Below, piece by piece: positions 5,140-40,237 of a stretch of DNA of 64,000 bases. Under the pieces are notes generated by a model. It did no database searches, was not told where the DNA came from, and saw only the letters and a list, made by a program, of their open reading frames with translations. Origin of the DNA: Pseudomonadota bacterium (GTDB lineage Bacteria; Myxococcota; JACRCW01; JAFGSX01). The position numbers were made by a program, and so were the translations under genes. The stretch lies in the NCBI GenBank assembly GCA_043821645.1, contig JBDRCO010000023.1, positions 1 through 64,000 of the forward strand, read 5' to 3'. Position 1 is the stretch's first letter. Each line of letters opens with the position of its first letter.

Positions 5140-6399
5140 ATGAGTGAAGCCTTGCAGGACAAGAAGCAGAAGATCGCCACCCTGGCATCCGTCATCCGCG
5201 GACTTCACGAGGGTGAGAGCCCGGACAGCGTGAAGCAGCGCCTCAAGCAACTGGTGCAGTCCACCACCTCGGACGAAGTGGTGGCCATGGAGCAAGCCCT
5301 CATGGACGACGGCATGTCCGTCGATGAGGTGCGGCGCATGTGCGACCTGCACAGCCAGGTGCTGCGCGAGGTCCTGGACGGCGATCCTCTGGGCAGCATC
5401 ACGCCGGGGCACCCCATAGACGTGTTCCGCCAGGAGAACCAGGCGCTGCGCGTCGAGACCGCGGCTTTGCGCCGCCTGGCCCAGGCCATCAGGACACCGG
5501 CCCTGCCCTCCTTGCCGGCCGAGGTCCTGGGTAGCCTGCGCTCCTGCGTCGATCGCCTGATCGAGGTGGAGAAGCACTACGCGCGCAAGGAGAACCTGGT
5601 GTTTCCGCTGCTCGAGCACAAGGGGATCAGCGGCCCCAGCCAGGTCATGTGGGCCAAGGATGACGAGGTGCGCGAGCTGCTCAAGGCCCTGCGCGAGGCC
5701 GTGGCCGAGGACGCCTCCGCGCTGGACATGGAGGGCTGGCGTTCGGTGGTCGACCACCTGGCCAGACCCCTGGCCGACGCTGTCGACGAGATGATGGTGA
5801 AGGAGGAGAAGGTCTTCTTGCCCACCGCCCTCGAGAAGCTAAACGCCGAGGACTGGGCCCAGGTGACCGCCGAGGGCCACCGCTTTGGCTACTGCCTCAT
5901 CACGCCTCCAGCGACGACAGACAGCGCGTCGACGCCGGACCAGTCCACGACGACGGACCGCGGCGGAACCGTGCGCTTCTCGGCAGGAGCTCTGAGCCCC
6001 GAGCAGCTGCGCGGGCTGATGACGGTGTTGCCCCTGGACCTGACCTTCGTCGACGCTGACGACAGGGTGGCCTTCTTCACCGAGGGTCAGCGCATTTTCC
6101 CGCGTCCCTCGACGGTGATCGGTCGCCAGGTGCAGCTGTGCCACCCACCCAGGAGCATGCACATCGTGCAAAAGATCCTGGACGACTTCCGCGCCGGCAG
6201 CCACGACCAGGCCGAGTTCTGGATCCAGATGCACGGCCGCTTCGTGCACATCCGCTACCTGGCCGTTCGCGGCGATCAGGACCAGTACCTGGGCTGCCTG
6301 GAGCTGACCCAGGACCTGACCACCCAGCGTGCGCTGCAGGGCGAGCAACGGCTCCTGTCCTACGGTAGCCAGGAAAAGGCCGCGGAGAACCCATCATGA
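5140..6399 (+). CDS. DUF438 / hemerythrin / PAS domain protein
   Basis: RMCDLH, GHPIDVFRQEN, HYARKENLVFP, PAS-type DLTFVDADDRV...CHPPRS. Confidence 0.88.
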   Translation: MSEALQDKKQKIATLASVIRGLHEGESPDSVKQRLKQLVQSTTSDEVVAMEQALMDDGMSVDEVRRMCDLHSQVLREVLDGDPLGSITPGHPIDVFRQENQALRVETAALRRLAQAIRTPALPSLPAEVLGSLRSCVDRLIEVEKHYARKENLVFPLLEHKGISGPSQVMWAKDDEVRELLKALREAVAEDASALDMEGWRSVVDHLARPLADAVDEMMVKEEKVFLPTALEKLNAEDWAQVTAEGHRFGYCLITPPATTDSASTPDQSTTTDRGGTVRFSAGALSPEQLRGLMTVLPLDLTFVDADDRVAFFTEGQRIFPRPSTVIGRQVQLCHPPRSMHIVQKILDDFRAGSHDQAEFWIQMHGRFVHIRYLAVRGDQDQYLGCLELTQDLTTQRALQGEQRLLSYGSQEKAAENPS

Positions 6400-6920
6400 C
6401 GACAGAGATCACACCGCAGACAAAGGTGGGCGAGTTGCTCAAGGACTCGCGGATCGAGCAGGCTCTGCTCGACTACCACCCGGCCTTTGCCAAGCTCAAG
6501 AACCCCATCTTGCGGCGTACCGTCGCCAGGGTGGCCACCCTGCGCCAGGCCGCCGAGGTTGCCGGAGTGGACGTCGGCGAGCTGGTGGCGACGTTGCGGC
6601 TCTCCGCAGGACAGTCACCAGTGCCTTCACCACCGCGGACCGTGCCCGGCGAAGACCAGGAAGCGGCCCCTGCCTGGACCGCCGCGGGCGAGGCCGTGGC
6701 GCGCATCGACGTGGATCAGGCTCTGGAGCGCGGCGAGCATCCACTGCCCGAGGTGCTTCGTCTGGCAGGCACGCTCGTGGGTTCACAGCGCATCGAGCTG
6801 GTCGCCTCGTTCAAGCCCGTTCCCCTCATCGACACCGTGGCCCAGCAGAATCTGCGCGTGGCCTGTGTGGTCGAGCCCGACGGCCGATTCCGCGTCCACG
6901 TGTCGGCGCAGGCCGTTTGA
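6396..6920 (+). CDS. DUF1858-domain protein
   Basis: ITPQTKVGELL...FAKLKNPILRRTVARVATLRQAA; ATGA overlap with upstream gene. Confidence 0.75.
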   Translation: MTTEITPQTKVGELLKDSRIEQALLDYHPAFAKLKNPILRRTVARVATLRQAAEVAGVDVGELVATLRLSAGQSPVPSPPRTVPGEDQEAAPAWTAAGEAVARIDVDQALERGEHPLPEVLRLAGTLVGSQRIELVASFKPVPLIDTVAQQNLRVACVVEPDGRFRVHVSAQAV

Positions 6921-7057
6921 CTCACTCCCGACCTCTCAGTATGGTCCGCCGACGGTGAGCAGGGGCGATCCAGGCCGGATTTCCCCCGGGCGTACGGGTG
7001 GGCTTGCCCTCCCATGGTGAGCGCGGGTCCTGTTCCAGGAACCGCCAAGGAGCGCAC

Positions 7058-7756
7058 ATGTCGAACGGATTTTTCGGCCGCGTGGCCAATCTGTGGAAGG
7101 GTTTCCTGAGCCTGTGGATCGCGGGCATCGAGAAGGAGCATCCGGAGATCGCCTACGAGAACGCGATCAACGCGATGATCACGAAGTACACACAACTCAA
7201 GAAAGCGACCGCCGCCATCGTTCGCCGGCGGGACGACGTCACCGAGCGGCTCAACAGCTCGCGCACGCAGCTCAAGCAGGTCGATGCCGACCTCAGCGCC
7301 GCCATCGCCACCGATCAGAAAGACCTGGGCGTCATCCTGATCCAGAAGAAACAGGCCCTGGCCGAGCAGGTGGCCGAGCTGGAGAGCGAGCTCATGCTGT
7401 CGGTGGCCGATGCGGACAGCGCCAAGGCCAGCCTGATGCAGGTGCAGGGCGAGATCAACAAGCTCAAGGCCGAGAAGGATCGCATGCTCGCCAAGCTGGC
7501 CAGTGCCCAGGCGCGGGTGCGGATCCAGGAACAGATCGAGGGTCTCAGCGTCGACGCCGAGGTCAAGGCGCTGGACGGAGTGCGCGAGCACATCAAGACG
7601 ACCGTGGCCGAGGCCAACCTCGGCGAGGAACTCGGCCAGACCGACCTCGACAAGCGACTGGCGAAGCTGCGCTCGACGGCTGGCAACGTCACCGCCAACG
7701 AGGAATGGGACAAGCTCAAGGCGGCCAAGGCCCAGGTCGCCACGCGGACCATCTGA
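7058..7756 (+). CDS. pspA: PspA/IM30 family protein (ESCRT-III superfamily)
   Basis: Amphipathic N-terminus [15 protein letters not shown]-x-P-E turn, ~230 aa all-helical coiled coil, [10 protein letters not shown]-terminal helix; AAGGAG RBS. Confidence 0.88.
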
Positions 7757-7832
7757 CGATCACTGCTGAGAAATACACCGAACCACATCTGGCCGCGATG
7801 ACTCCGAACAGGTCGCGGTCCGGGAGGGCGCC

Positions 7833-9488
7833 GTGAAACTCACGCCATTTGCCAAGGTCTTTGTCACCGTCATCGTGCTGGCCGTGCTGGGATTCGTTGC
7901 CTATTTCAAGTTCGGCGGCGACATCAAGGGTTGGGCCACCGACGGCCGCAGCGACCAGAAGGCCGAGGATCCGAACGGTACCGGCAGTGGGGCCGCAGGT
8001 GTGACCAAGGATGACTTCAACGCCCTGGGCACGGCGCCGGCGGATCCGACGCGCAACCAGCCCGTCACCGGCGTCACCGGTACCGAGGTGGGTGCAGGCA
8101 TGCTGGGCAGGCCCCTGGTGGTCGGTATCAACACCTGGGCGGGTCACTCACCCGGCGTGGTGTTCAACCGAGGCATGGAGCCCAGCGACAAGTCGCTGTA
8201 CAAGAAGGAGTTCGGTCTCGACGTCAAGTTTGTCTTGCTCGAGGACCCGGCCGCCAAGCTGGCCGCGTTCAAGAAGGGCGACGTCGACATCATGTGGGAC
8301 ACCGTCGACAACTGGGCGCGCGAGGCCTCGCTACTCAGCGAGACTAGCATGGCGGCCAAGTCGATCATCTTGCAGGACTGGAGCCGCGGCGGCGACGGCA
8401 TCGTGTCCCTGAAGAGCATCAAGTCCATCGAGGATCTCAAGGGCAAGACCGTGGCCTGCACCCAGTTCACGCCTTCGCATTTCTTGCTGCTGTTCCTGCT
8501 GTCGCAGTCCGGCTTGACGCCTCAGGACAGAGCCGCCGTCGAGAAGGCGATCATCTTCACCCAGGACGCTCCGGCCGCCGCGGCCATGTTCAAGGCCAAG
8601 CGCGTCGACGCGGCCGTGACCTGGGAGCCGGACCTGTCGGGCGCGGTCGAGGCCCGGGGCGACGAGGCCCACGTCCTGGTCTCCACCTCGGCAGCCACCC
8701 ACGTCATCGCGGACACCCTGGTGGCGCGCGGTGACCTCATCGACAAGGCCCCGGGCGCGGTCAAGGCCTTCGTCCACGGATGGATCAAGGGCATCGACCT
8801 GATGCGTGACGACCCGGCGTCGTCCTACGCCATCGTCGGCGACGCGCTCAAGCTCGATAACGAGACCGTGAGCGGCATGCTCAGTGGCCTCAAGCTCACG
8901 CCTTACGCCGACAATGCCCTGTTCTACGGCCTCACCGGCGGGCGCTCGCACTACGAGACCCTGTTCGACACCGCGTTCAAGATCTGGCGCAAGAAGGGCC
9001 TGGTCACCCGCGCGGTCGGTCCCCGGGACTACGTGGACACTCGCTTTTTGCAGGCCCTGGCCGGGCAGTACGCGACCCAGAAGGTCGAGGAGCCGCCGGT
9101 CGCGGCCAAGGCACCGGACATCAAGGACCGCGCCATCATCAACAAGACCATCCAGATTCACTTCACGCCGGCGTCGGACAAGATCATGGACGGCTCGTAC
9201 TTTGTCCTCGACTCCCTGGGCGAGACCATGGTGGCTTTCGGCAGCACCTACCTGAGGGTCGAGGGCAACACCGATTCGACTGGCTCGGCGGCGGCCAACC
9301 GGAGCCTGAGCGAGCGTCGCGCCATCGCCGTGCGCAACTACCTGACCAAGGAGTTCCCGCAGATCCAGGTGGAGCGTTTTCAGACCATAGGCCACGGCGA
9401 GGACCAACCGGTCGCGGATAACGCCACCGAGGCCGGACGCCAGCTCAACCGTCGCACCGACATCAAGGTGGTGCTGGCGACGAACTGA
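7833..9488 (+). CDS. NMT1/SsuA-type ABC substrate-binding protein fused to C-terminal OmpA-like peptidoglycan-binding domain
   Basis: N-terminal TM helix; [26 protein letters not shown]; OmpA motifs [24 protein letters not shown]. Confidence 0.9.
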
Positions 9489-9564
9489 GCCTCGACCGCG
9501 GGCAGCGCTCGATCGGTAGCGACGATCTGTCGCCGGTTCTTGGGGATGTGACGACGAGGTCACC

Positions 9565-10359
9565 ATGGCACGATCGCGTGAGCTGTTCGCCCTGCGCGGT
9601 ACGCTCGAGAGGTCGCACAAGACCGTACTGATGTTCGTGGCTCCGGCCCTGGTGCTGGGCACCTGGTGCCTGCTGAGCTATGGCGGCTTGACCTCGCCGG
9701 ACTTCTTGCCGTCTCCCAGCGACGTCATCAAGGGCACCCTGCAACTCTTCATCGAGCACGATCTGGCCCTGGCCATCTGGATCTCGACCCGCCGCATCCT
9801 GCTCGCCTTCCTGCTCGCTTCCGCCGTGGCCTTCCCCCTGGGCATCCTCATGGGTTCGTTCTCGCCCGTCGAGGCGGTGTTCGAGCCCATCGTGGCCCCC
9901 TTGCGCTACATGCCCATCTCGGCCTTCATCCCCCTGCTCATCCTATGGTTTGGTATCTTCGAGGCCGAGAAGATCGCGTTCTTGTTCCTGGGTACCTTCG
10001 TCTACCTGTTGCCTGTCGTCGTCACGGCCGTCAAAGCCGTGCCTCAGGAACTGGTACAAACCGCGCGGACCCTGGGTGCCAGCACTTTCCAGGTCATCCG
10101 CACGGTGCTGGTGCCTCGGGCCCTGCCCGAGATCTTCGACTCGTTTCGCGTCATGAACGCCATTGCCTGGACGTACGTGATCCTGGCCGAGGCCGTGAAC
10201 CCCATGCACGGCCTGGGCTACATGGTCGAGCTGGCGCGCACGCACAGCAAGCCGTCGTGGAGCTTCGCCGGTCTGCTGGTCATCGGCGGCATCGGCCTGT
10301 TCACGGATTTCCTGATCCGGACCATGTCACGCATGCTGTTTCGGTGGCGGGAGTGGTGA
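9565..10359 (+). CDS. ABC transporter permease (SsuC/TauC type)
   Basis: FLPSPSDV, LRYMPISAFIPLLILWFG, ARTLGAS EAA-like loop, AWTYVILAE. Confidence 0.93.
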   Translation: MARSRELFALRGTLERSHKTVLMFVAPALVLGTWCLLSYGGLTSPDFLPSPSDVIKGTLQLFIEHDLALAIWISTRRILLAFLLASAVAFPLGILMGSFSPVEAVFEPIVAPLRYMPISAFIPLLILWFGIFEAEKIAFLFLGTFVYLLPVVVTAVKAVPQELVQTARTLGASTFQVIRTVLVPRALPEIFDSFRVMNAIAWTYVILAEAVNPMHGLGYMVELARTHSKPSWSFAGLLVIGGIGLFTDFLIRTMSRMLFRWREW

Positions 10360-10363
10360 AGCC

Positions 10364-11293
10364 ATGAGTGACGACGACAAGACGGGAGTGGCATCCCAGG
10401 CATCCCCGGCCAGCGTTGCGCCGGCGACCTCCCCGAACACGGCACCACCCGCCGCGTCCGTGTCCACCCCGGGTACCGCTGCGCAACCCGCCGCGGTCAT
10501 CGATCCCACCCTCAAGCTGCAGATCGAGGATCTGCATGTCACCTACATCGGTCGCGAAGGCAGCCGCGTCGAGGCTCTGTGTGGCGTCGACTTCGACATC
10601 CGGGACAAGCCTGGCGTCGGCGAGATCGTGGTGCTGCTGGGCCCCTCGGGGTGTGGCAAGTCCACGGTGCTCAAGTGCGTGGCGGGGTTGCTGTATCCGA
10701 CCCAGGGTCAGGTGCTGGTCTCGGGCAAGGCAGTCGACGGTCCGGGTCGCGACCGCGGCATGGTGTTTCAGCAGTACACCTCCTTCGACTGGCTCACGGT
10801 GCGCCAGAACGTCGAGTACGGTCTCAAGCTGGCCGGCGTCCCCTCGGCGGAGCGGCACACGCTGAGCGACCACTACCTGAAGCTGGTTGGCCTGGACGAG
10901 TTTGGAGGCGCGTATCCCAAGGAACTGTCGGGCGGCATGAAGCAGCGCGTGGCCATCGCACGCACACTCATCAACAAGCCGCGGCTGGTGTTGATGGACG
11001 AACCCTTTGGCGCCCTCGACCCGCAGACGCGGTGGGAGATGCAGACGCTGCTGCTGGAGATCTCGCGCACCGAAGACAACACCATCCTGCTGGTGACCCA
11101 CGACGTGAGCGAGGCGGTGTATCTGGCGGACACCTGCTACGTGCTGTCGCCTCGCCCTGCGCGCATCCTGCACCGCGTCGATGTGCCGGTGTTCGCGGAT
11201 CGCTCAGCCGCCGTCAAGGCCTCGACCGAGTTCCGCGCCATCGAGAAGACCCTGCTCGACATGCTCTACGCGCAGCCCGGAGGCACCGCGTGA
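10364..11293 (+). CDS. ABC transporter ATP-binding protein (SsuB/TauB type)
   Basis: GPSGCGKST, LSGGMKQR, LMDEPFGALD, VTHD. Confidence 0.95.
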   Translation: MSDDDKTGVASQASPASVAPATSPNTAPPAASVSTPGTAAQPAAVIDPTLKLQIEDLHVTYIGREGSRVEALCGVDFDIRDKPGVGEIVVLLGPSGCGKSTVLKCVAGLLYPTQGQVLVSGKAVDGPGRDRGMVFQQYTSFDWLTVRQNVEYGLKLAGVPSAERHTLSDHYLKLVGLDEFGGAYPKELSGGMKQRVAIARTLINKPRLVLMDEPFGALDPQTRWEMQTLLLEISRTEDNTILLVTHDVSEAVYLADTCYVLSPRPARILHRVDVPVFADRSAAVKASTEFRAIEKTLLDMLYAQPGGTA

Positions 11294-12084
11294 GCGACAA
11301 GCTTGTTCTCTACAAACCTCGCTCCACTGGCGCCTACGTCAAGGCGCTGTTCCACAATGTGTACAACTACTCGCTGCTGGGCGGGGTGGCCACGGCCGCT
11401 GCGCTCACGGGGCAGTGGTGGCTCCTCGCCATGGGCGCCGGCGCCGAGGCCCTGTACATGCTGTGGGCGCCCTCGTCCAAGTTCGTGCGGGGCAAGGTCG
11501 ATGGCATGTTCGCCGCGGAAGACCAGAAAGAAGCTGCCGCGCATCGGGAGAAGATCCTCGAGCTCCTGTCGTCGCGCGACCGCAATCGAGCCAGCGCGCT
11601 CATCGACAAGGAAGCCGAGATCCGCGAGCTCGCCGAGAACAACAAGTCCCTCGAGCGCAGCCTGCTGGATCGGGAGCTGCAAAAACTTGGTCAGCTGGTC
11701 AACGATTTCGTGAGCCTATGCGAAGCCTCGAGCCGACTGCGGGCCTACCTCGACAACCAGGACAAGGGCGAGCTCGAACGCAAGATGCGGCACTGGGAGG
11801 CGGTGCTCGAGGGTGACAAGCGCAGCGAGCGCGAGCTGGCCCGGCGCAACCTCGACGTGCTCAAGCGCCGCATGGAGCGCCTGCGCGACATCCAGACCTT
11901 CGTCGAGCGGGCGGTCGGTGAGATGAGCCTGATCGAGAACTCCTTCGGCTTGCTATCGGACCAGATCGTGTCCATGCAGAGCGCGGGGGAGTTCGCGGGT
12001 CAGCTCGACGATCTGCTGGACGGCGTGGATGCCGTGCGCAGCGCTGCGGGTGTCGCCGAGCGGCTGAGCCAGGAGGTGCTGTGA
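11290..12084 (+). CDS. membrane-anchored coiled-coil hypothetical protein
   Basis: GTG start overlapping the ABC ATPase stop (GTGA); N-terminal hydrophobic hairpin then a long charged coiled coil. Confidence 0.8.
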   Translation: MSDKLVLYKPRSTGAYVKALFHNVYNYSLLGGVATAAALTGQWWLLAMGAGAEALYMLWAPSSKFVRGKVDGMFAAEDQKEAAAHREKILELLSSRDRNRASALIDKEAEIRELAENNKSLERSLLDRELQKLGQLVNDFVSLCEASSRLRAYLDNQDKGELERKMRHWEAVLEGDKRSERELARRNLDVLKRRMERLRDIQTFVERAVGEMSLIENSFGLLSDQIVSMQSAGEFAGQLDDLLDGVDAVRSAAGVAERLSQEVL

Positions 12085-13907
12085 CGACGTCCCCTGCGAA
12101 TCTTCCTGGCTGGGCCGAGGAGTTGCGTCGGCGCTACCTGCGCGGCGAGGCCTTCATGTTCGCGCTGCACGGCAACGTGCACGACCTCGTGCTGCACGAG
12201 GGCAAGCCCATGATGGTCGACGAGCTGCTGTGCAAGGTCCTGCTGGCGGCGACCCGCGACACCATCGCGCTGTACAACACCGCCGCGGGTGTGCGCTTTG
12301 CCAAGCGTCGCGACACGCTGGCGGACCTCGATGAGATGCTGCTGCAGCGGAGTCGCGAACGCGTGTTGCCTGCCCTCGAGAGAATGTTGCTGGTCGAGGA
12401 CAAGGCTGCGGTGGTGCTCGAGTACGCCGAGACCCTGGCACCCGCGGGCGACATCGCCCTGTACAGCGAGGGCGACCGCGCCAGCCTGATCACCCTGCAC
12501 CGCTGGTCCTGCATGCCCGCCCTCGAGAAGGGCGACAACATCATCGTGCTGATCGCCGAGAACCTGAGCGAACTGCACCCGCGCCTGGTGCACAACCCGC
12601 GCATCGCGACCCTGCGCGTGCCCCTGCCCGACGAGGACGCGCGCCGCGCCCTGATCCAGCACCTGGCTCCGGACCTCGACAGCAAGGCGGTCGAGCGCCT
12701 GACCGAGATCACGGCCGGGCTCAAATCCGTGCACATCCGCAACGTGCTCAGGCCCAGCGAGGCCGAGGACGACGTGGACGAGCGTCGTCGCTACATCGCG
12801 AGCCTCCTTGGCGCCTCCGCCGCGGCCGAGCGCGTCGACGGGCTGGCCCGCATCACCAAGGGCATGTCCCGGGAGGAAGTCCGCACCCTGGTCGCGCCGG
12901 ATCGTCCACAACCCCCCGGTGGCGTCGACGCCCTGGACGAGATCGTGCGCATCGTGCTCCGCCACAAGCGCGAGATCATCGAGCGTGAGTGTGCAGGTCT
13001 GCTGCACTTCATCGAGCCCAAGCATGACTTCCGGGCCGTGGGCGGCATGGACGAGGTCAAGCGCGAGCTGGGCCGGGTGGCTGCGGATATTCGCGGTGGC
13101 GAGGTGAGCCGGGTCCCCATGGGCTTCCTGTTCGTGGGACCCATGGGCACGGGCAAGACCTTCGTGGCCGAGGCCTTTGCCAAGGAGAGCGGGCTCACCG
13201 CGGTCAAGTTCGGCAGCTTTCGCAGCAAGTGGGTCGGCGCCACCGAGAGCAATCTCGAGCGTATCCTCGACGTGCTCCCGGCCATGGGCCAGGTACTGGT
13301 GGTCATCGACGAGGTGGATCGCGCCCTGGCAGGTAACGCCGGCAGTGGCGACGGTGGCACCGAGAGCCGGGTCATCGCACGGCTCAAGGAGTTCATGTCG
13401 GACACCCGCAACCGCGGCCGCATCCTGTTCGTGCTCATGACCAACAGACCCGACCTGCTCGACGTGGATATCAAGCGAACAGGTCGCCTGGATCGAAAGA
13501 TCCCTTTCTTCTACCCGCAGACCCCCGAGGAGGTGGAGCCGGTGCTGGCCGCCCTGCTCCGACGCCACAAGCTGGGGCTGAACGTGGACCTGACCACGGT
13601 GCGCGAGCGGGTCAGCACGCCGCTGGTGGGCTACTCCAACGCCGACATCGAAGGTGTGGTGATGCTGGCTGCGTCCATCGCCGACCGCGACGGCCGCCGC
13701 GACGCCGTCGCCATCGCCGATCTGCAGGCCGCGGTCCTGGACTACCTCCCGTCGAGGGACATCACGATGCTCGAGTACATGGAGTTGCTGGCGGTGTTCG
13801 AGGCCAGCAACAAGAGCATGCTCCCCGCGCGCTATGCGGAACTGTCGTCCGAGGAACTCAATGAACGCCTGCAGCTGGCGCGCGCCAGGGTGGGCTCACG
13901 GCGTTAG
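12081..13907 (+). CDS. AAA+ ATPase, classic clade (CDC48/Ycf46-like; degenerate first and intact second AAA module)
   Basis: [13 protein letters not shown] pore loop, [22 protein letters not shown]-terminal degenerate module (LHGNVHD, VVLEYAE). Confidence 0.9.
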
Positions 13908-13926
13908 TTTTTCACTGGAGGCACCA

Positions 13927-14382
13927 ATGCTGGACATGACACAGGGTATCGAGCTGAGTCAGGAACAGGCGGCACTCTTCGCGCGCGGGCTGTTCGCGCT
14001 GTCGCGGGTCGACGGGCACGAGGAGCGAGAAGGCATGCTGATCAAGTCCTTCTGGATGGACGTGACAGGCGAGGCCGACGTCAACGGACTCAAGCAGCTC
14101 GAGGCATCCCCCGACATCGACATCAAACAACTCGCCGCGGGTCTGTCGAGCCCCGGGGCCCGCGAGCTGTTCATGCGCACCGCCATTTTGCTCGCCTATG
14201 CCGATGGGAGTGTGAGCGCGCTCGAGCGAAAGTGGCTGGAGACGGCGGGACAGGCCATGGGCTTCGAGGTGGCAGATCTCACCCGGCTGGATGAGCTGAC
14301 CCGCACCACGCTGCTTGGACAGCTCAGCCACCTGGCCAATACCGATGCCGCGGCCCAGGTCGCCCGCAAGCTGGGGTTCTGA
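13927..14382 (+). CDS. TerB-like protein
   Basis: Duplicated motif LSRVDG-HEERE and LAYADGSVSALERKWL; GGAGG RBS. Confidence 0.8.
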   Translation: MLDMTQGIELSQEQAALFARGLFALSRVDGHEEREGMLIKSFWMDVTGEADVNGLKQLEASPDIDIKQLAAGLSSPGARELFMRTAILLAYADGSVSALERKWLETAGQAMGFEVADLTRLDELTRTTLLGQLSHLANTDAAAQVARKLGF

Positions 14383-14384
14383 CC

Positions 14385-15035
14385 ATGAGTGACGAGAAGA
14401 GCCTGGGCAAGGCCCTGCTGGGACTGTTCGTCACCGAGGACGAGGAACAGCCCAAGGGCGCCGCCGCCGACGTGACCAGCGTGGACGATCTGCTCAAGCG
14501 CTATGGCGCCGATGGTGGCGAGCCCGAGGTCGCTGCATCGCGCACGAGATCGAGCAGCGCGGGAACTGCCCCGGCAGCGGTGCCCCTGGGGGCCCCCATC
14601 CCGCTCCAGGGTGGTGCGCTGCCCCTGGACCGCATCTTCGAGGCCGCCGGTATCCCGAGCGAGGCCCAGAGCCAGGTTCAGAAGGCGCAGGAGTTGCTCA
14701 AGGGTTTGCCCGTGGACACCCCGCTCGCGGTGAAGAAGCAGATCGTCGAGACGGCGCTGCGCGCGTTCGGCTTCCCCCTCGCCGAACTCGTCGACACGGC
14801 GCGCCAGGAGCAGAAGGCGCTCGACGATTTCCTGGCCATCCAGGGCGGCGACACCCAGCAGCAGAATGACGCGGACCGAGCGCGCATCGAGGCCCTCAAG
14901 GCCGAGGCCGCCGCCCTCGAGCAAGCGATCCAGGATCGCCTGGGTGAGCAGACCCAGGCCAGCGCACAGGTCACCGCAGCCAAGGCCACCATCGACGAGG
15001 TGCTCGGCTTCTTCGGACCAGGTGTGCCAGGCTGA
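14385..15035 (+). CDS. coiled-coil hypothetical protein with amphipathic termini
   Basis: 2 nt after the TerB-like stop; SLGKALLGLFV N-terminus, C-terminal coiled coil ending IDEVLGFFG. Confidence 0.75.
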   Translation: MSDEKSLGKALLGLFVTEDEEQPKGAAADVTSVDDLLKRYGADGGEPEVAASRTRSSSAGTAPAAVPLGAPIPLQGGALPLDRIFEAAGIPSEAQSQVQKAQELLKGLPVDTPLAVKKQIVETALRAFGFPLAELVDTARQEQKALDDFLAIQGGDTQQQNDADRARIEALKAEAAALEQAIQDRLGEQTQASAQVTAAKATIDEVLGFFGPGVPG

Positions 15036-15258
15036 GCGCGAGTCCTCCTCGCCCCGGACCCCTTCCGACACAGCGCGCTGTATCCCCTGTGCATCATAGG
15101 TAGATCGTCACCTGGGCGAGGCGCGTCCCCTGCACCTGCCGCCTGCAGCACGCAGCGACGATGCGCGAAGGCATCACAGCTTTCCGCAGTGACCCCGCTC
15201 ACAGTGAAAATTTGGCGCCAGATCAAGATGTTGTGCGCTGCGCTCGCGGTCGTTGTGG

Positions 15259-15274
15259 TGGCGCGCGACCTGCA
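15259..15274 (+). promoter_or_regulatory. putative sigma54 (-24/-12) promoter
   Basis: TGGCGCGCGACCTGCA: GG-N10-GC spacing exact, about 40 nt upstream of ATG 15313. Confidence 0.55.
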
Positions 15275-15312
15275 TATCTTATCGGATGAACAACGCCACA
15301 GAGAGGTCCAGC

Positions 15313-17691
15313 ATGGTCGCCCTCAGCACACAAGCAGCGCAGCGTCTCCGCCAGGCCGGTCTGGAGCCCTCGGGCTTGACCCAGGAAGGACTGCGCCAGC
15401 TCGACGCCAACCAGGATGGCCAGGTTGACGAAACAGAGGTCGGCGTTGCACTGCGCGTCGTCGATCGCGATCACAACGGCGTCCTGGATCAGGGCGAGCA
15501 GGACAGCTTCTCCAGCCTCGTCGAGGGTCCAGGGAGCGAGGCCGCGCGCCGAGCGCTGCTGGGCCAGCACGTGCCGTACCACACGGAGCAGGAGCTGCAG
15601 CGCCTCGACAGCGCGCAGCGTCAGGCCGGCAGCGCCCTGGACCGCGCCGGTTACGCGCTCGAGGCCGCCGAGCGCGACGCAAGCTGGGGCCAGGAGCAGA
15701 CCCGGCGCGAGCTCAGGGGCGATCCCGAGCCCAGTGCTCCGCTCGAGGAGCTGCGGCGGCAGCGGGCTCAGCTCGGGGATCCCGCGGCGCGCGCGCGCGA
15801 GCTCGACGAGGCACACGCCACCCTCGCCCAGGGGAACAAGCAGCTGCCCGAGCTGGACCAGCGCATCACGGCGCTCAATCAGAGACTGAAGCACTTCCCC
15901 AGGAACCTCGACGACCAGGTCGGGACGCTGCGCGACCACCTGGCGACCCACGACAGGCTGGCCGCCCTGATGCCGGACCGGCCCAGCCGGACCCAGCGCC
16001 TCGCCGACCTCACAGCGCAGGGCAAAGTCCTCGACACCGAGCTGACGCAACTGCATCGGCAGCGCCGGAGCCCCGAGCGCGACGCCAGGGTGCAGACCCT
16101 GCTCGCCGAGAAGAAGGCGTTGAGCACGGAGCGGCAGCTGGCGAACCAGTTCAGCCCTGGTCTCGCCACGCAGTCGCGCCGCTTTCACGCCGACAACCTG
16201 GCCAGCGCCGAGAAGCGGCAGGCGGTACGCAACACGCTGCGCGACGAGCGCGGCGCCCTGGCCGAGACCCGGCAGCGGACCCAGGAGCGGATGCAGCACG
16301 CCACCGGGATCGTCGAGCACAACCCTCAGGACATCGCCGCTGCCGCCCGGCTGGACCGCCAGATCCACGCGGTCGAGGTGCGCCAGGATCTCGCCCGGCG
16401 CGTCGCCCAGGCGCAGAGCGGCGTGCGCGCTGCCAGCCAGCACAGCACCGAGCTCGCGAGAGAGAGAGCGGCGGCACAGCGCCTCGACAAGCTAGCACGG
16501 CTGCGCGAGACCCAGGCTGCGAGCGCCGTCGGCAGGCTCGAGCGGACCCGCAGCCTGACCCGGCAGCTCGAGGCCGAGCAGCAACGCCTCGCCAGCAACC
16601 CCACGGCGCGCGCCGCGGCCGAGCGCCTGGTCAAGGCCCAGAACGTCAAGCGCCTGGCCGAGCAGGGCGCACTCCAGGCCAGCAAGGTGGACCTGGGCAA
16701 GGTCGACGCCGACATCCGGGCAGCCGAGGCGACCTTGCAGCGTCTGCAGCGCCCGGTCGAGTTCGCCGCGGCCGAGCTGGGGCGGCAGCTCGAGGATACC
16801 GAGGTGCAGGCGACGCTGGAGCAGCTTCCCACCGCCGAGCGCGACGCCATCGAGCACGCCGCCCACAAGGCCCTGGCGCAGACCAACGAGGGCACGAAAT
16901 TCTTCGACGCCCACATCGCGCCCGCGCTCGAGGGCAAGGGCAAGGGCTACTTTCAGCGGTTGTTCACAGGCAGCAACAAGACCGCCAACCTGTCGCTGCA
17001 GGCGATGGAGCTGTGGTCGAGTCGCATCGCACTCAAGGGCGGTGTCGAGGCCTACAACCTGCTCCGGGGTGGCCTGTCGCAGGCGCTGGCGCTGCGACCG
17101 CAGGACATCCCCGTGGTGGAGCAGGCGCTGGGCATCCTGTCCAGCAAGGGGGAGAAGGCAGCCCGGACCTTCCTGGCAAGGCAGGCGCCCGAGCTGCGGA
17201 AGGTCGCCGATGTCCTCGACCGGACCGCAACCTGCTTCGGCTCCGTCGCCGGCGCGATCGCCGCGGTGGACCTGGTGCAGAACCCCGACCTGCGCAACGC
17301 CCTGGCCGCGGCCAGTGGCAGCAAGGACATCGCCGGCGTCCTGAGCACGCTCAAGGTTCCGGGCACCGCAGCCTACCTCAAGGTGATCGGCAAGGTGGCG
17401 CGCCCGCTGGACGCGATCGTGGGTGGTCTGGATGCGTACTCGGCGTGGAAGCGCGAGGACGTGGGCGGCGTCATCGGCAACGGCATGACCTGCGCCGGAG
17501 GAGCGCTGGCCACAGCTGGCGCCATCTGCTCGTCGAGCATCGTCGGCTCGCCCGTGGGCGTGCCCCTGATGCTCGTCGGCGGGGCGGTCAGTGGCGCCGG
17601 GATGCTGCTCGACTGGATCTTCGGCGACTCGGCCGAGGAGAAGCAGTCCGCGACCTGGTTGCAGAAGCACGCTCCCGAGTACCTCGACTGA
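15313..17691 (+). CDS. EF-hand + long coiled-coil + C-terminal Gly-rich hydrophobic segment protein (effector/toxin-like)
   Basis: DANQDGQVDETE and DRDHNGVLDQGE loops; ~450 aa heptad-rich region; GSPVGVPLMLVGGAVSGAGMLLDWIFG; GAGAGG RBS. Confidence 0.75.
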   Translation: MVALSTQAAQRLRQAGLEPSGLTQEGLRQLDANQDGQVDETEVGVALRVVDRDHNGVLDQGEQDSFSSLVEGPGSEAARRALLGQHVPYHTEQELQRLDSAQRQAGSALDRAGYALEAAERDASWGQEQTRRELRGDPEPSAPLEELRRQRAQLGDPAARARELDEAHATLAQGNKQLPELDQRITALNQRLKHFPRNLDDQVGTLRDHLATHDRLAALMPDRPSRTQRLADLTAQGKVLDTELTQLHRQRRSPERDARVQTLLAEKKALSTERQLANQFSPGLATQSRRFHADNLASAEKRQAVRNTLRDERGALAETRQRTQERMQHATGIVEHNPQDIAAAARLDRQIHAVEVRQDLARRVAQAQSGVRAASQHSTELARERAAAQRLDKLARLRETQAASAVGRLERTRSLTRQLEAEQQRLASNPTARAAAERLVKAQNVKRLAEQGALQASKVDLGKVDADIRAAEATLQRLQRPVEFAAAELGRQLEDTEVQATLEQLPTAERDAIEHAAHKALAQTNEGTKFFDAHIAPALEGKGKGYFQRLFTGSNKTANLSLQAMELWSSRIALKGGVEAYNLLRGGLSQALALRPQDIPVVEQALGILSSKGEKAARTFLARQAPELRKVADVLDRTATCFGSVAGAIAAVDLVQNPDLRNALAAASGSKDIAGVLSTLKVPGTAAYLKVIGKVARPLDAIVGGLDAYSAWKREDVGGVIGNGMTCAGGALATAGAICSSSIVGSPVGVPLMLVGGAVSGAGMLLDWIFGDSAEEKQSATWLQKHAPEYLD

Positions 17692-17805
17692 GGCCTGCAC
17701 GCGTCGGGCAGCCGGGCAACGAGGCAGGGGCGCGGGCGCCAGCATGAGAGATGCAGCGCTTTCGGGCTTAGCTTCGGCGAGGTCCTGGGGTTCCTGGGCG
17801 GAGTA

Positions 17806-18804
17806 TCAGTCCGACGCCGTCACGAAGACCTGGCTGCCGTCACGCGTGGGCGCGGCATTGTCGAGCACATCTTGACCGCCGAGCACACTGTGGCGGAAGT
17901 CGCCAAAGGCCTGCTGTCCGACGACGAGAGCGCGCAGGGTGATCTCGAATTCCTGGCTGTCATAGAGCGGGTGGTAGTGCCCGATCTTCATCATCAGGAT
18001 GTTGTGCGCCTGCGGGTAGGGCATGCGGCCATAGCGCGCGGGGAGCACGAAGGGATCGAGCCAGTTGTACAGCGAGGTGTATTCCACGCCCGCGGGGAGT
18101 TCGAGGGAGTTGAGGTGATCCAGGAACCTGGATCCCGGCAAGAGCTGCAGACCGCTCTCGCCCACGATGTGAGGCACCCGTGGCAGCGCCGACAGGGCGA
18201 GGGTTCCGGCGCGATGCATGTAGCCGAACAGCCCGCTCCAGGTGCCACGGTGCGGCACGGTCAGGAACACGCAGCGCTTGAGCTTGGGGACTCCCAGCTC
18301 CTGCACCATGGTGCGCGCCACGATACCGCCCTGGCTGTGACCGACGATGTACACCTCCTCGACCTCGGTCTCGGCGAGGACGCGCTCGATCACCCGGTGC
18401 TCGTACTCGGCCGAGATGCGGATGTCCTGGGAGTAGGGCTGGTAGCCCCCCGCAACGGGAAAGAGATCGAACAGTGGAGAGTCGAGCAGGCGCTCGAAGC
18501 GCTCGAAGCTGGGTCGCCCCTGCAGGTAGCCGTGGTACAGGAACACCGCCTTCTTCTGGCCACGGTACGCGCCCAGTCGCTGGTCCAGGTAGTCCTGGCC
18601 GAAGTAGAAGTTCTCAGCCACGCGCACGGCGTGGTCGAGGCTGTTCTTGGCGATGTTGTACGCCTCGGTGATGAGCGACAGGCTCATGCGGATCTTGCTC
18701 AGGGCCTCGCGATCGCGAAGGGCCTGCTCGACCACCACCCGAGCACGCGGCACGCGCTGGTTCACGTTCTTGCGCAGGGCATCCAGACTGACCACGCCAA
18801 CCAT
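17806..18804 (-). CDS. alpha/beta-hydrolase (lipase-like)
   Basis: FLYHGYL oxyanion motif, VGHSQGG nucleophile, PHRGT, candidate Asp (DPFV) and His (GHYH); start uncertain (18804 or 18837). Confidence 0.85.
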   Translation of the reverse strand: MVGVVSLDALRKNVNQRVPRARVVVEQALRDREALSKIRMSLSLITEAYNIAKNSLDHAVRVAENFYFGQDYLDQRLGAYRGQKKAVFLYHGYLQGRPSFERFERLLDSPLFDLFPVAGGYQPYSQDIRISAEYEHRVIERVLAETEVEEVYIVGHSQGGIVARTMVQELGVPKLKRCVFLTVPHRGTWSGLFGYMHRAGTLALSALPRVPHIVGESGLQLLPGSRFLDHLNSLELPAGVEYTSLYNWLDPFVLPARYGRMPYPQAHNILMMKIGHYHPLYDSQEFEITLRALVVGQQAFGDFRHSVLGGQDVLDNAAPTRDGSQVFVTASD

Positions 18805-34628: not shown

Positions 34629-36146
34629 TTAGAAAGCTGCGACCAGGGCACCGGGAGCAGAGCTGGTGTCCCCGTCGAGGTCGCGATCCTTGGTGATGAC
34701 GGGCGCCGGTCCGTACTCGTGCAGCAGGCGCTGTACAAAGCGCAGGTATTGCGGGTTCTGGCCGATCACGTTGACACCCAGACCCGACTGCGCGCGGGGG
34801 TCTGGCACCATGAGCTGGAATCGCACCACCTGGCCATGCACACGCACGGCGCGCTCGGCATAGGCGTCGGGGTCCAGCAGCTCGACGGTCACCCTGGTCC
34901 CCGGGGGCACCACGTCCGAGGTGCACACGAACAAGCCGCTGCTCGACAGGTTGCGCGTGGCGGCCTGTCGCATGGCCCCACTGGCACGCTCTGCATAGCG
35001 AAGAGCGACGCGGACGTTGACCCGGGGCGTGTCCCTCGCGATGCGGTCCTCCAGCACCTCGTGAAGGTCCGGAACCTCGGAACTGACGCTGAGCGCGCTG
35101 GCCGTGGGTGCCAGGTCCAGGTAGCGCCGCTGCGCCGACGTCAAGCCCTCGATGAGGGCGGATGGAACGTGCTCGGAATCTCGCTGGGCGACCCGGATCA
35201 GGGTCGCGAACAGGTGCGTGTACAGGGTCTGCCGCCGGACGCGCCGGACCATGCGCTGTACCCGCGCCACCAGCACGTCGACGCCCTCGATCAGACGCTC
35301 CACCACATCCTCGGCACCCGCCTCGATCGCGCGCAATGCCAGGGACACATCGCTGCCGTGAGACACCGCCAGCATTCCGCTCAGTGGAGCCTTGGCGTGC
35401 AGGATCTCGAGAAGCTCCAGCACGCCGGGGTCGTCGAGCCCCACCACCAGACCGCTGGGTAAAAGTGCCTGATCGAGACGCGCTGCGGCCTCGCTGCAGG
35501 TGCGCACATGCTCCACACTCAGGCCCTGGCTCTGCAGAGCATCCGAGGTCACTTCGGCCCGGGCGCCCACGGGCTCGACCAGCAGCACGTCGGGTCGTTC
35601 CTGGAACTGGGTCTTGAAGGCGAACAGCTCGTGGGCAATGACCGAGGCCGTCAGGCGATCCTCATCGGCACCATGAACGGCCTGGGTCAGGTCTCGCACC
35701 ATGCGCGTGTAGACCTGCTCGCTCAGCCGCTGATCCACGATGGCGCGCAGGCGTTGCACGAGCTGACGGAAGTTCGGAAAAGGCTTCTCGATGTAGTCCA
35801 CCGCGCCGGCTCGCAGGGCCGCGGTGATGCTCTCCACCGAGGGGTATCCGGTGATGAGCACGGCAGGGACATCGTGGCCAAGGTCCTGCAATTCGGCAAT
35901 GAGGTCGAGACCGGACATGCCCGGCAGATTCTTGTCCACCACCAGCAGGTCGTAGGCCGTCTCCTCGAGGCGCTGGCGAGCGCTCTCGGCAACGGCCGTG
36001 ACGTCGACGACGAAACCCTCGCGCACCAGCAACTGCTGCAGCACGCCACGGATCACAGGCTCGTCGTCCACCACCAGCACGCGCAGCTCGCGCGCCAGCA
36101 CGGCCCGGTAACTGGTCCACACCGATGCAAGTCGGTCGAGCAGCAT
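34629..36146 (-). CDS. response regulator: REC + pseudo-REC + PilZ
   Basis: VVDDE/VVDKNLPG/KPF receiver; second receiver lacking the acidic residues; RDTPR...NLSSSG PilZ motifs. Confidence 0.85.
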   Translation of the reverse strand: MLLDRLASVWTSYRAVLARELRVLVVDDEPVIRGVLQQLLVREGFVVDVTAVAESARQRLEETAYDLLVVDKNLPGMSGLDLIAELQDLGHDVPAVLITGYPSVESITAALRAGAVDYIEKPFPNFRQLVQRLRAIVDQRLSEQVYTRMVRDLTQAVHGADEDRLTASVIAHELFAFKTQFQERPDVLLVEPVGARAEVTSDALQSQGLSVEHVRTCSEAAARLDQALLPSGLVVGLDDPGVLELLEILHAKAPLSGMLAVSHGSDVSLALRAIEAGAEDVVERLIEGVDVLVARVQRMVRRVRRQTLYTHLFATLIRVAQRDSEHVPSALIEGLTSAQRRYLDLAPTASALSVSSEVPDLHEVLEDRIARDTPRVNVRVALRYAERASGAMRQAATRNLSSSGLFVCTSDVVPPGTRVTVELLDPDAYAERAVRVHGQVVRFQLMVPDPRAQSGLGVNVIGQNPQYLRFVQRLLHEYGPAPVITKDRDLDGDTSSAPGALVAAF

Positions 36147-38405: not shown

Positions 38406-38528
38406 GGGCAGAGGCTACGACGTCGAGGGCATCGCGTCCACTGGCGGAGTTGTCCTTGCCCAGGGTTGCCGGAATGACCGCCTCGGGGTAGATCTGAGGG
38501 CCTCACCATGCGAGATGGGGGTCTCTTC

Positions 38529-40220
38529 ATGCTGCGTTCAGTGCTCCTGGTGTCCGTGGTAGCAGCCACACTCGTCATCCCTCCCACGCTGCACGGCCAG
38601 CAGCCATCGGATTCCATGGCACCACCCATCGTCGTGGCAGAGCCACCCGCCGAGCCCTTCGCGGCCCCTGCTCCAGCGCCTGCGGGCAAGGTCGCCGTGA
38701 CGCCCTTGCGAGCCCCCGCCAGCCTCGGTGGAAACGCCCGCAGCCTGAGCGCTGGCCTGGCTCCACAGCTCAACCGCCTGGGGCACACTGCCGTCGACAC
38801 CGAGACCGTGGGCTTCGTGCTCGACCGTCTGGGCAACAAGGCCATTCTCGACTGCAGCGAGCCGTCCTGCTTGACCCAGATCGGCCAGGCCGTCGGCGCC
38901 GCCCAGGTTGTTCACGGCCAGCTCGAGGAGCTTGGCGAGGGTGTCCTGCTGACCCTGATACTGGCGGACACCGCCAGCGGCCGCGAACTGTCCCGACAGA
39001 CCGCCTTCTGGAAGGGCGACCGCGAGCAGCTTGGCCAGGTCAGCGAGCCTTACCTGCGTCGGCTGCTGGCCGGGGATGCGGCCAGCACCTTGCGCGGTGG
39101 GGTGGCTGTCACGGCACCGGCAGGTGCGCGGGTGCTGGTCGACGGCACCGAGCGCGGTCTAGCCCCTCTTTCTGGCGAGCTGAGCCTGGACAGCGGCGTG
39201 CACTCGCTCGAGGTGTTGCAGGCGGGACAGAAGACCTGGCGCAAGGAGATCATCGTGCGCGCCAGCTCGCATGAGACCGTGGTGGCCGTGCTGGTACCCG
39301 AGGCCAGCGTGGCCGTCGCCGTGGCGCCCCCTCCGCCGGTGGTCGAGACCGTACCGCCTACTCCGGTCCCCGCGCCCACGCCCGTGCCGGAGCCCTCCTC
39401 GGTGGCTCCCGTCGCCACTCCTGCCCCGGCGGCGGTCCAGGGCCCACAGCGCACCATCGCCCTGCTCGACCTGCGCAGCGACGAAGACACCAAGAACATG
39501 GCCAGCGCCTTGACCGTGGTGGTGGCGTCCGAGCTGGGCCGCACCCCCGGCTATCGCACGGTGTCGCGCAATGACCTCAAGTCGCTGCTGGCGCACCAGG
39601 CCAACGCGCAGCTTGTGGGCTGCTCCGAGGTGCAGTGTCTGTCGGACATCGCCAAGATGGCCGCGGCGGATCTGCTGGTGTCCGGCAGTGTGACCCGGGT
39701 CGAGGACGCCCACGTGCTGTCCCTCGAGCTCATCGACGCGGTGGAGGCCCGGGTGATCGAGCGCCAGGCCGCGACCTGGCGGGGCGATCCGGCGCGCATG
39801 GTCGAGCTGGCTCGCCCCTACGTCGACCGACTACTGGCCGGCCCCGCGGCGCAGTCCTTTGTCGGCAGCCTCGAGCTCATGGCGCCTGAGGGCGCCTCGA
39901 TCACCGTCGACAACGCGGTGCAGGGGAACGCTCCTCTGGGCCAACCTGTGGCCAACCTGGCCTCCGGCGTGCACGGCATCACCGTGGCCAAGCCGGGCTA
40001 CCTGACCGTCCGCGACGACGTGGTGGTGGTCCGCGGTGAAACCACGCTGGTGCAGGTCGACCTGGTCGACGAGAACGCGGACAAGCCCTGGTACAGCCGC
40101 TGGTGGGTGTGGGGCAGCATCGGTGGAGGACTGGCTCTGATTGGCGGCACAGCTGCTGCCATCGCCGTGGTCGCCGTGCTCACAAACACCCCCACCACCG
40201 TCGGCGTGAGCCAGCAGTGA
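38529..40220 (+). CDS. exported protein with two tandem (CsgG/TolB-N-like + PEGA) modules and C-terminal hydrophobic helix
   Basis: Signal peptide; duplicated C..xxCL..I motif and PEGA (GARVLVDG, GASITVDN); KPWYSRWWVW followed by a TM helix. Confidence 0.8.
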   Translation: MLRSVLLVSVVAATLVIPPTLHGQQPSDSMAPPIVVAEPPAEPFAAPAPAPAGKVAVTPLRAPASLGGNARSLSAGLAPQLNRLGHTAVDTETVGFVLDRLGNKAILDCSEPSCLTQIGQAVGAAQVVHGQLEELGEGVLLTLILADTASGRELSRQTAFWKGDREQLGQVSEPYLRRLLAGDAASTLRGGVAVTAPAGARVLVDGTERGLAPLSGELSLDSGVHSLEVLQAGQKTWRKEIIVRASSHETVVAVLVPEASVAVAVAPPPPVVETVPPTPVPAPTPVPEPSSVAPVATPAPAAVQGPQRTIALLDLRSDEDTKNMASALTVVVASELGRTPGYRTVSRNDLKSLLAHQANAQLVGCSEVQCLSDIAKMAAADLLVSGSVTRVEDAHVLSLELIDAVEARVIERQAATWRGDPARMVELARPYVDRLLAGPAAQSFVGSLELMAPEGASITVDNAVQGNAPLGQPVANLASGVHGITVAKPGYLTVRDDVVVVRGETTLVQVDLVDENADKPWYSRWWVWGSIGGGLALIGGTAAAIAVVAVLTNTPTTVGVSQQ

Positions 40221-40237
40221 TGCGAAATACAGAGGGG

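Follow-up and report, generated by a model that had tools for sequence, protein, structure and literature searches.

How bacteria disassemble polymers of the ESCRT-III type, those of PspA and Vipp1, is an open question. It is raised directly by a locus at positions 7058–15035 of a 64,000-nucleotide stretch of bacterial DNA (GenBank assembly GCA_043821645.1, contig JBDRCO010000023.1, positions 1 to 64,000, forward strand; labelled Pseudomonadota bacterium, placed in the Myxococcota by its GTDB lineage), referred to below as the window. Eight genes of the plus strand, g1 to g8, encode a divergent PspA, a solute-binding protein fused to an OmpA-like domain, the permease and the ATPase of an ABC importer, a membrane protein, a tandem AAA+ ATPase, a TerB-like protein and a protein with one long helix. 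Do they form a machine that remodels PspA polymers at the expense of ATP? With a probability of about 0.6 they do: g5 anchors or nucleates PspA, the ATPase ring formed by g6 remodels or recycles the polymer, and the ABC module couples the process to the periplasm or the cell wall, the contacts, the ATPase substrate and the ligand being proposed ones. The operon is the most direct place to test ATP-driven remodelling of PspA. Its peptidoglycan-tethered ABC module would link the state of the cell wall to repair of the inner membrane, for which no counterpart is described in Psp or Lia systems.

The idea of such a machine is reasonable but already published as a prediction. The sequence-only reading that was followed up here had presented the system as uncharacterised; this claim falls, since both the operon class and a Vps4-like role were predicted by Ravi et al. 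2024 (mSystems, PMC11237479; preprint 10.1101/2020.09.24.301986). Passages of that paper state that PspA occasionally co-occurs with a protein of two AAA+ domains, the N-terminal copy being inactive, and give an operon class composed of PspA, a PBPB+OmpA binding protein, a permease, an ABC ATPase, a Snf7-like transmembrane protein and a protein with an inactive AAA domain followed by an AAA domain. ATP-dependent membrane remodelling comparable to that of Snf7-Vps4, with a link to the transporter, is suggested there, and chaperone-like assembly roles are also mentioned; PspF is, in the same passages, an NtrC-type transcription activator and no classical-clade unfoldase. The co-oriented cluster contains all six types of component, and five of the six features are found; the Snf7 nature of g5 is not reproduced. 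The TerB-like gene and the g8 family are extra here, neither being mentioned in those passages. The cluster almost certainly belongs to this class. According to passages of a 2025 review (PMC7619361), a Vps4-like ATPase appears absent in bacteria; in passages of Makarova et al. 2024 (PMC10936438), ESCRT systems with vps4 are restricted to the archaea and the eukaryotes; the passages of Popp et al. 2022 (PMC9239133) found by term search do not mention the arrangement. No experimental study of a PspA/tandem-AAA+/ABC operon was found in a full-text literature search. To the idea already in print the locus adds a well-defined eight-gene example and a ranking of the parts into core, frequent and lineage-specific; it is a good experimental target.

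The cluster is conserved. A scan of one genome per species for the ATPase family gave 41 loci, labelled Myxococcota-type, Acidobacteriota (Pyrinomonadaceae), Sericytochromatia, Pseudomonadales or unclassified. Components were called in six-frame, stop-to-stop open reading frames (ORFs), no gene caller being used, with own family hidden Markov models (HMMs) for g1, g5, g7 and g8 and with phmmer for g2–g4; Pfam was run on representatives. Same-strand co-occurrence was counted in those 25 loci that extend 8 kb or more upstream of the ATPase gene. PspA is present in 20/25, the g2-like protein in 19/25, the permease g3 in 19/25, the ABC ATPase g4 in 20/25, g5 in 21/25 and g8 in 15/25, with Acidobacteriota among the last. 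Loci with co-occurring components span Myxococcota, Acidobacteriota and one metagenome-assembled genome (MAG) of the Pseudomonadales (gammaproteobacterial). Gene order is g1 to g8 in the window and in L052; g8, g1 to g7 in seven Polyangia-type loci; g8, g5, OmpA protein of 965 amino acids (aa), 541-aa permease-ABC fusion, g1, g6, g7 in L015; g1, g2-like OmpA protein, g3, g4, g5, g8, g6 in Acidobacteriota; g2, g3, g4, g5, unannotated 283-aa ORF, g1, g6 in L031 (Pseudomonadales). Conservation of the cluster across the 41 loci is, as judged from sequence comparison, far beyond chance. The co-conservation to be expected from the sequence-only reading is borne out for PspA, the ABC ATPase, g5 and g8 despite the permuted gene order. 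Its claim that all eight genes are one unit stands in part: PspA, the ABC module, g5, g8 and the ATPase occur together in three phyla; TerB does not follow them, being found in 16/41 loci, each of Myxococcota-type label (for two of them the label is just 'Pseudomonadota bacterium'), and in 0/14 Acidobacteriota-labelled loci, three of which end at the ATPase gene.

Smaller forms occur. PspA lies directly before the ATPase gene in the dyads L048 and L064 and in L057 (g8-PspA-ATPase), and L033 consists of PspA-g5-ATPase only. In the myxobacterial family f6 (G032, G052, G082, G115) the genomes with a lone ATPase contain a variant PspA elsewhere (4/4, E ~1e-104); g5 directly follows PspA in 2/3 of the f6 PspA loci fetched (L068–L070), where ABC genes are missing from the neighbourhood. 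The ABC module, though frequent, can be dispensed with: neither the dyads nor the PspA-g5-ATPase locus nor the split f6 arrangement contains ABC genes. On the strength of this survey PspA, g5 and the tandem ATPase are ranked as the stable core, the wall-tethered ABC module and g8 as frequent companions and TerB as a myxobacterial addition.

The profile of D1, the N-terminal AAA domain of the ATPase, matches 181/301 sampled genomes of the window's phylum at E <=1e-10, one unpublished genome (G195) being counted in this tally. The ATPase is near-universal in several families (e.g. 112/115 and 19/20). Across 1.84 billion cluster representatives the profile matches 1113 proteins at E <=1e-10 and 236 at <=1e-30. 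A long form (E < ~1e-80) accompanies the operon; a short form (E ~1e-50, without the D1–D2 insertion) is found in 112/115 genomes of one large family. Twenty further regions were fetched from the phylum sample, among them L052, where the eight-gene operon of window type recurs, L056 with an operon of Polyangia type, and L053–L055 and L059 with lone long-form ATPases of family f6. A locus of the short-form lineage, L046 (8704–19837, minus strand), contains genes for an NMT1-type binding protein, a g5 homologue, a 551-aa unknown ORF, an ABC ATPase, an FtsX/MacB-type permease, a 259-aa unknown ORF, a Ser/Thr kinase with PEGA domain and the short-form tandem ATPase, all on the same strand and within 11 kb of the ATPase. 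It is the one short-form locus scanned with Pfam and the family HMMs; L045, L047 and L060–L063 are similar. PspA is weak or absent near the short-form ATPase in loci of this type. The surroundings of the ATPase in four Sericytochromatia-type loci (L026, L029, L032, L039) are unrelated (TldD/PmbA peptidases, glycosyl hydrolase), with no PspA, g5 or ABC genes within 10 kb.

The first gene, g1 (7058–7756, plus strand), encodes a divergent PspA/IM30 paralogue of the ESCRT-III superfamily, 232 aa in length. Matches PF04012 over profile positions 3–218 of 220 (E 1.2e-14, 54.9 bits vs gathering cut-off 33.9). Scores below the E. coli-type PspA equivalogs (TIGR02977, 30.1 bits vs 242.95; NF007974, 19.3 vs 336). 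Two canonical PspA genes are located on other contigs of the same genome and reach 178 and 149 bits vs 54 for g1. By these scores g1 is a divergent, dedicated PspA paralogue. Its orthologues (alignment A2, 17 orthologues) have a conserved N-terminal amphipathic stretch or helix and a conserved C-terminal end, K/R-T/S-M/L/I. This basic-hydroxyl-hydrophobic tripeptide (KTM, KSL, RTI) follows a conserved helix, RL..LR...G.V.A, and is missing from the two canonical paralogues of the genome. This conserved end is a candidate for what the ATPase recognises.

The ATPase, g6 (12081–13907, plus strand), is a tandem AAA+ protein of 608 aa. Its second domain, D2 (~residues 313–560), matches PF00004 at residues 350–476 (E 2.9e-25). 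The motifs of D2 are intact: Walker A GPMGTGKT, Walker B IDEVD, pore loop KWVG (W384-V385-G386) and arginine-rich GRLDRK; in 20 orthologues (alignment A6) they vary little or not at all. Walker A and B motifs together with an aromatic-hydrophobic-Gly pore loop and arginine fingers mark a threading unfoldase. To judge from its motifs, D2 is an active classical-clade AAA domain, as expected of a substrate-threading unfoldase. D1 (~residues 1–305) has the AAA layout and no GK[ST] P-loop; its nucleotide motifs are lost, LHGNV standing where the P-loop would be and ILEYAE where Walker B would be, along with PLPD..R (alignment A5). Only classical AAA chains are matched by the D1 profile, weakly (E 0.0017–0.02) and in the sensor-1-to-lid stretch. 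D1 is, by its motifs, a degenerate, inactive AAA domain. The best PDB matches of D2 are to Cdc48/p97 D2, with E ~1e-44 for the whole chain. Equivalog scores are low (CdvC NF041006, 60 bits vs 650; TIGR01243, 90 vs 803), and no MIT or Vps4_C domain is found in g6 with Pfam at E up to 0.01. On domain content and scores g6 is neither a Vps4/CdvC orthologue nor a Cdc48 member; by analogy it may nonetheless work like Vps4. Complex prediction with the full-length ATPase (alignment A6) and PspA (alignment A2) gave a score of 0.00 in two runs without controls, a result neither for nor against binding. Three metagenomic representatives of 818–856 aa (P0030, P0045, P0077) have two consecutive degenerate N-terminal domains before the remaining ATPase and look like a three-module form of the family.

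The membrane protein, g5 (11290–12084, plus strand), is 264 aa in length and consists of a hydrophobic helical hairpin at ~residues 28–62, which is conserved (alignment A1), and a helical part of ~190 aa, a cytoplasmic bundle. The AlphaFold model is all-helical, with a predicted local distance difference test (pLDDT) score of 79. Belongs to no Pfam or NCBIfam family; a Pfam scan of 14 family members gave scattered weak matches only. A homologue search returned 18 proteins; every one is hypothetical and lacks Pfam domains. The gene is adjacent to that of PspA in L033, L068 and L070 (family HMM). It is probably the protein described as transmembrane plus Snf7 by Ravi et al., and is proposed as the membrane partner of PspA. 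Its nearest annotated Atlas neighbour is the cluster of Rv2743c (PspM), with a score of 0.88, taken as a lead only.

In one MAG copy, L001 (9131–11809, plus strand), the frames of g5 and the ATPase are joined in a single open frame of 893 aa without a stop; in L003, a paralogous copy of the same MAG, the stop and the frame change between the two genes are kept. Either a genuine fusion or an indel of the long-read assembly could account for the joined frame. Other long g5-ATPase open frames obtained in the genome search are stop-to-stop artefacts in separate frames and were rejected. The metagenomic representatives P0063 and P0132, in which one frame covers both g5 and the ATPase N-domain, look frameshifted or chimeric and were left uncounted.

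Three genes between g1 and g5 encode the ABC module. The product of g2 (7833–9488, plus strand; 551 aa) has an N-terminal hydrophobic anchor, a solute-binding domain of SsuA/TauA/NMT1 type and, at the C-terminus, an OmpA-like domain (Pfam: OmpA 7.7e-16, NMT1 4.5e-11; NCBIfam: SsuA_fam 86 bits vs cut-off 163.5, TauA 42.9 vs 304; PDB: OprF C-terminal domain 1.1e-19, TauA 3.5e-6). The permease g3 (9565–10359, plus strand; 264 aa) is TauC/SsuC/SaoP-like, matches BPD_transp_1 (2.5e-19) and is below equivalog cut-offs (SaoP, 134 bits; TauC, 125 vs 342). The ABC ATPase g4 (10364–11293, plus strand; 309 aa) is TauB-like (ABC_tran 2.8e-30; TauB 221 bits vs cut-off 357) and has a Pro/Ala-rich N-terminal extension of ~50 aa. 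The fold family of the binding protein, the permease and the ATPase are all closest to Tau/Ssu/Sao systems (TauABC/SsuABC, NitT/TauT family), and the OmpA domain of g2 is a typical one, like those of Pal, the OprF C-terminal domain and MotB-type peptidoglycan anchors. In contrast to TauABC/SsuABC, g2 is membrane-anchored and fused to a peptidoglycan-binding domain, and all three parts are under the equivalog cut-offs. By these scores g2–g4 are related to TauABC/SsuABC importers but are a distinct subfamily.

The last two genes encode small proteins. The TerB-like g7 (13927–14382, plus strand; 151 aa; PF05099, marginal) has no NCBIfam match. Its start is set at the ATG at 13927, not at 13834, the first ATG of the open frame, because 15 homologues align from there (alignment A4). 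The same alignment has two conserved D-G...E motifs, which agree with what are presumably the metal sites of TerB. From its distribution g7 is a lineage-specific myxobacterial accessory. The product of g8 (14385–15035, plus strand; 216 aa) has a short N-terminal motif, hydrophobic and then acidic, a disordered Pro/Ala linker, a small three-helix domain and a helix of ~79 residues (alignments A3, A7). In the AlphaFold model pLDDT is >90 for residues 80–210. No Pfam or NCBIfam family is matched. Foldseek gave nothing at E <=0.001; rows at E ~2 (open-form CHMP1B, Vipp1, CHMP2A-3) are due to one long helix and were disregarded. Atlas neighbours are unannotated clusters only, some of them phage-labelled. 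The motif (window 14385–14450; alignment A7) is G..LLGLFVV.E in Myxococcota and SSFL..IGGFFISKVE in Acidobacteriota, positioned near the N-terminus or after a leader of ~45 residues, and may serve in membrane binding or as a docking peptide. In L031 an ORF of 247 aa ahead of the other genes has the g8 architecture; it was put into A7 by eye at 20% identity, without a significant match.

A machine dedicated to PspA is favoured because gene order is permuted, minimal dyads exist, the PspA paralogue is a dedicated one, the ATPase has a complete threading apparatus and the ends of PspA are clade-specific. The divergent PspA would polymerise on the cytoplasmic face of the inner membrane via its N-terminal amphipathic helix, with membrane-embedded g5 as receptor or nucleator. 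The tandem AAA+ ring would thread PspA subunits, or g5/g8, through the D2 pore, by which the polymer would be disassembled or remodelled; the ATPase would be a functional analogue, not an orthologue, of Vps4/CdvC. The ABC importer, its binding protein membrane-anchored and peptidoglycan-tethered, would supply an envelope-derived input or move a solute at the same site. TerB and g8 would be adaptor or regulatory subunits. Binding of PspA to the ATPase and recruitment of PspA by the coiled-coil proteins are likewise proposed. The self-contained PspA-remodelling machine claimed at the outset is retained as a conserved unit with intact ATPase motifs and is narrowed in three respects: the ABC module is dispensable, the ATPase is no Vps4 orthologue and the contacts of PspA are proposed ones.

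Known systems are similar in part. ESCRT-III/Vps4 (CdvB/CdvC) likewise has a polymer-former of the ESCRT-III superfamily beside a classical-clade AAA+ protein with an aromatic pore loop, and a membrane-anchoring partner; it differs in that g6 is without MIT and Vps4_C and has a degenerate AAA domain as its N-terminus, and in that the polymer protein of the operon is of the PspA branch, not of the Snf7 branch. Psp and Lia systems (E. coli PspF-PspABC, B. subtilis LiaIH, M. tuberculosis ClgR-PspA-PspM-PspN) share PspA and a small membrane partner, and g5 would act as PspB/C, LiaI or PspM. They differ in that the window has no PspB, PspC, PspF or Lia component and in that the Pfam model of Rv2743c misses g5. 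Pfam was run on 12 + 32 ORFs of the window, and no PspB, PspC, sigma-54 activator, LiaF/LiaS-type or TauD/SsuD-type domain is found among them, so that the absence of pspBC, pspF, liaRS-type and sulfonate/taurine catabolic genes, as read from the sequence alone, is confirmed for these ORFs. Tandem unfoldases (Cdc48/p97/VAT) also have two AAA modules in tandem, and Cdc48/p97 D2 is the best PDB match; in contrast to them, D1 of g6 is without the P-loop lysine motif and no Cdc48 N-domain is found in the Pfam scan. A more far-reaching proposal, tentative and rather doubtful, is a complete bacterial counterpart of the ESCRT-III/Vps4 cycle, arisen independently of Vps4, with PspA nucleated by g5, recycled by a Cdc48-derived ring that recognises its C-terminal end and gated from outside by the peptidoglycan-tethered binding protein and ABC transporter, and with g8 and TerB as lineage-specific adaptors. 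Polymer assembly would, if this were true, respond to the state of the cell wall.

Several findings count against a dedicated PspA machine of this composition. L017 has g4, g5 and g8 but no detectable g1–g3. The short-form ATPase is alone in the four Sericytochromatia-type loci with flanks named above (Pfam on L029 and L032). In f6 the ATPase is megabases from PspA, 3.3 Mb in G032. A Myxococcaceae-type variant has an FtsX/MacB-type permease instead of the usual ABC module, and L033, the PspA-ATPase dyads and the f6 PspA-g5 loci have none. Cdc48 D2, PAN and FtsH resemble the ATPase more than CdvC does. The match of g7 to PF05099 is marginal (E 3.6e-5, 24.5 bits vs cut-off 24.4) and covers profile positions 55–116 of 118 only. 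For g5, comparison with PspA by hhalign (A1 vs A2) gave a probability of 0.6%, the Snf7 Pfam model matches nothing in the genome, g5 included, at E up to 10, and Foldseek against PDB gave nothing at E <=0.001. VIA-align fold searches with g5 reached best Z values of 11.3 and 11.6 with unrelated helical proteins, and no ESCRT-III chain is among the 50 best rows. Identification of g5 as PspM/Rv2743c was rejected: the ten matches of PF25587 in the genome are weak, and g5 is not one of them.

Part of this evidence is also that for another function, in which the AAA+ protein serves membrane proteins as a chaperone of quality control or assembly (Cdc48/FtsH/Msp1 type), acting on the transporter, g5/g8 or other envelope proteins, and PspA only seals the membrane. 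D2 is most like Cdc48/p97 D2, PAN and FtsH, not Vps4; MIT and Vps4_C are not found in g6 with Pfam; the ATPase also occurs without nearby PspA (Sericytochromatia-type loci, family f6, L049–L051); g5 overlaps the ATPase gene by GTGA and reads through into it in L001; and chaperone-like assembly roles are voiced in passages of Ravi et al. as well (PMC11237479). Against it, PspA is immediately before the ATPase in L048, L064 and L057, where the transporter is missing, a variant PspA is retained in 4/4 f6 genomes having the ATPase, and the PspA clade has its own conserved C-terminal end. Such a chaperone is unlikely. Lower still is the probability that two independent neighbours are seen, an ordinary importer of the sulfonate/nitrate family and a PspA-ATPase stress module, with no joint mechanism. 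The resemblance of the ABC parts to TauABC/SsuABC, the lack of ABC genes in L033, the dyads and the f6 PspA-g5 loci, and a transporter of other build or family in L015 and in the Myxococcaceae-type variant would be as expected from it. Against mere adjacency, 20/25 loci of three phyla have the ABC ATPase on the same strand despite the rearranged order, the unusual OmpA fusion recurs in the scanned myxobacterial, acidobacterial and Pseudomonadales representatives, all three ABC parts are under the cut-offs of nutrient-importer equivalogs, no sulfonate or taurine catabolic gene is present among the scanned window ORFs, and g4 and g5 overlap by GTGA; two unconnected modules are quite improbable.

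An anti-phage or abortive-infection system might be thought of in view of a 'phage shock' protein, TerB and an ATPase. All PADLOC matches are at domain level: the OmpA domain matches ZorB/MotB, the AAA domain IetA and the ABC ATPase models of mad3/PtuA type; no PADLOC defence model matches PspA, g5, g7 or g8. With its presence in 181/301 phylum genomes and near-universality in several families the ATPase looks like a housekeeping or envelope component, not a part of a patchy defence island, and defence is a very improbable function. Remodelling of PspA by the ATPase is the reading retained.

The eight genes are arranged as expected of an operon. Intergenic distances from g1 to g8 are 76, 76, 4, -4, -4, 19 and 2 nt. 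GTGA overlaps at the g4/g5 and g5/g6 junctions couple translation of these genes. Sites of GGAGG type are located 5' of g5, g6 and g7, and purine-rich sites 5' of g1, g2 and g3. ORF listing and junction sequences agree with the earlier description of eight co-oriented genes, no gap longer than 76 nt and two overlaps of GTGA. A sigma-70-like promoter match, TTGACT-17-TATGGT (6917–6945, plus strand), lies 113 nt upstream of the PspA start. It is the only one in 6300–18000 and, with 1 found vs 0.8 expected in shuffles, is alone not significant; its position just after the stop of the upstream gene (6920) fits an operon promoter. No terminator-like site is found at gene ends (3 found in the scan vs 4.7 expected), and Rfam has no match at E <=0.1 in 6300–15400. 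A response regulator (34632–36146) and a sigma factor of extracytoplasmic function (ECF) type (62255–62794) are present in the window, far from the operon. The host genome is 7.07 Mb in size and 94.7% complete.

The flanking genes are placed outside the system, as counterparts are found in 0/41 related loci. Downstream, 217 nt after g8, an 812-aa coiled-coil protein is encoded (15253–17691, plus strand), with weak EF-hand-like matches near the N-terminus and a Gly/Ala-rich, hydrophobic C-terminus. Upstream is a gene pair with an ATGA overlap (5140–6920, plus strand), for a DUF438 + hemerythrin + PAS_10 protein and then a DUF1858 + DUF2249 protein; by its domains it looks like a gas- or redox-sensing pair. 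Farther along the window, an open frame of 1995 aa with IPT/TIG domains (40103–46087, plus strand) is preceded by the gene of a PEGA-domain protein (38508–40217).

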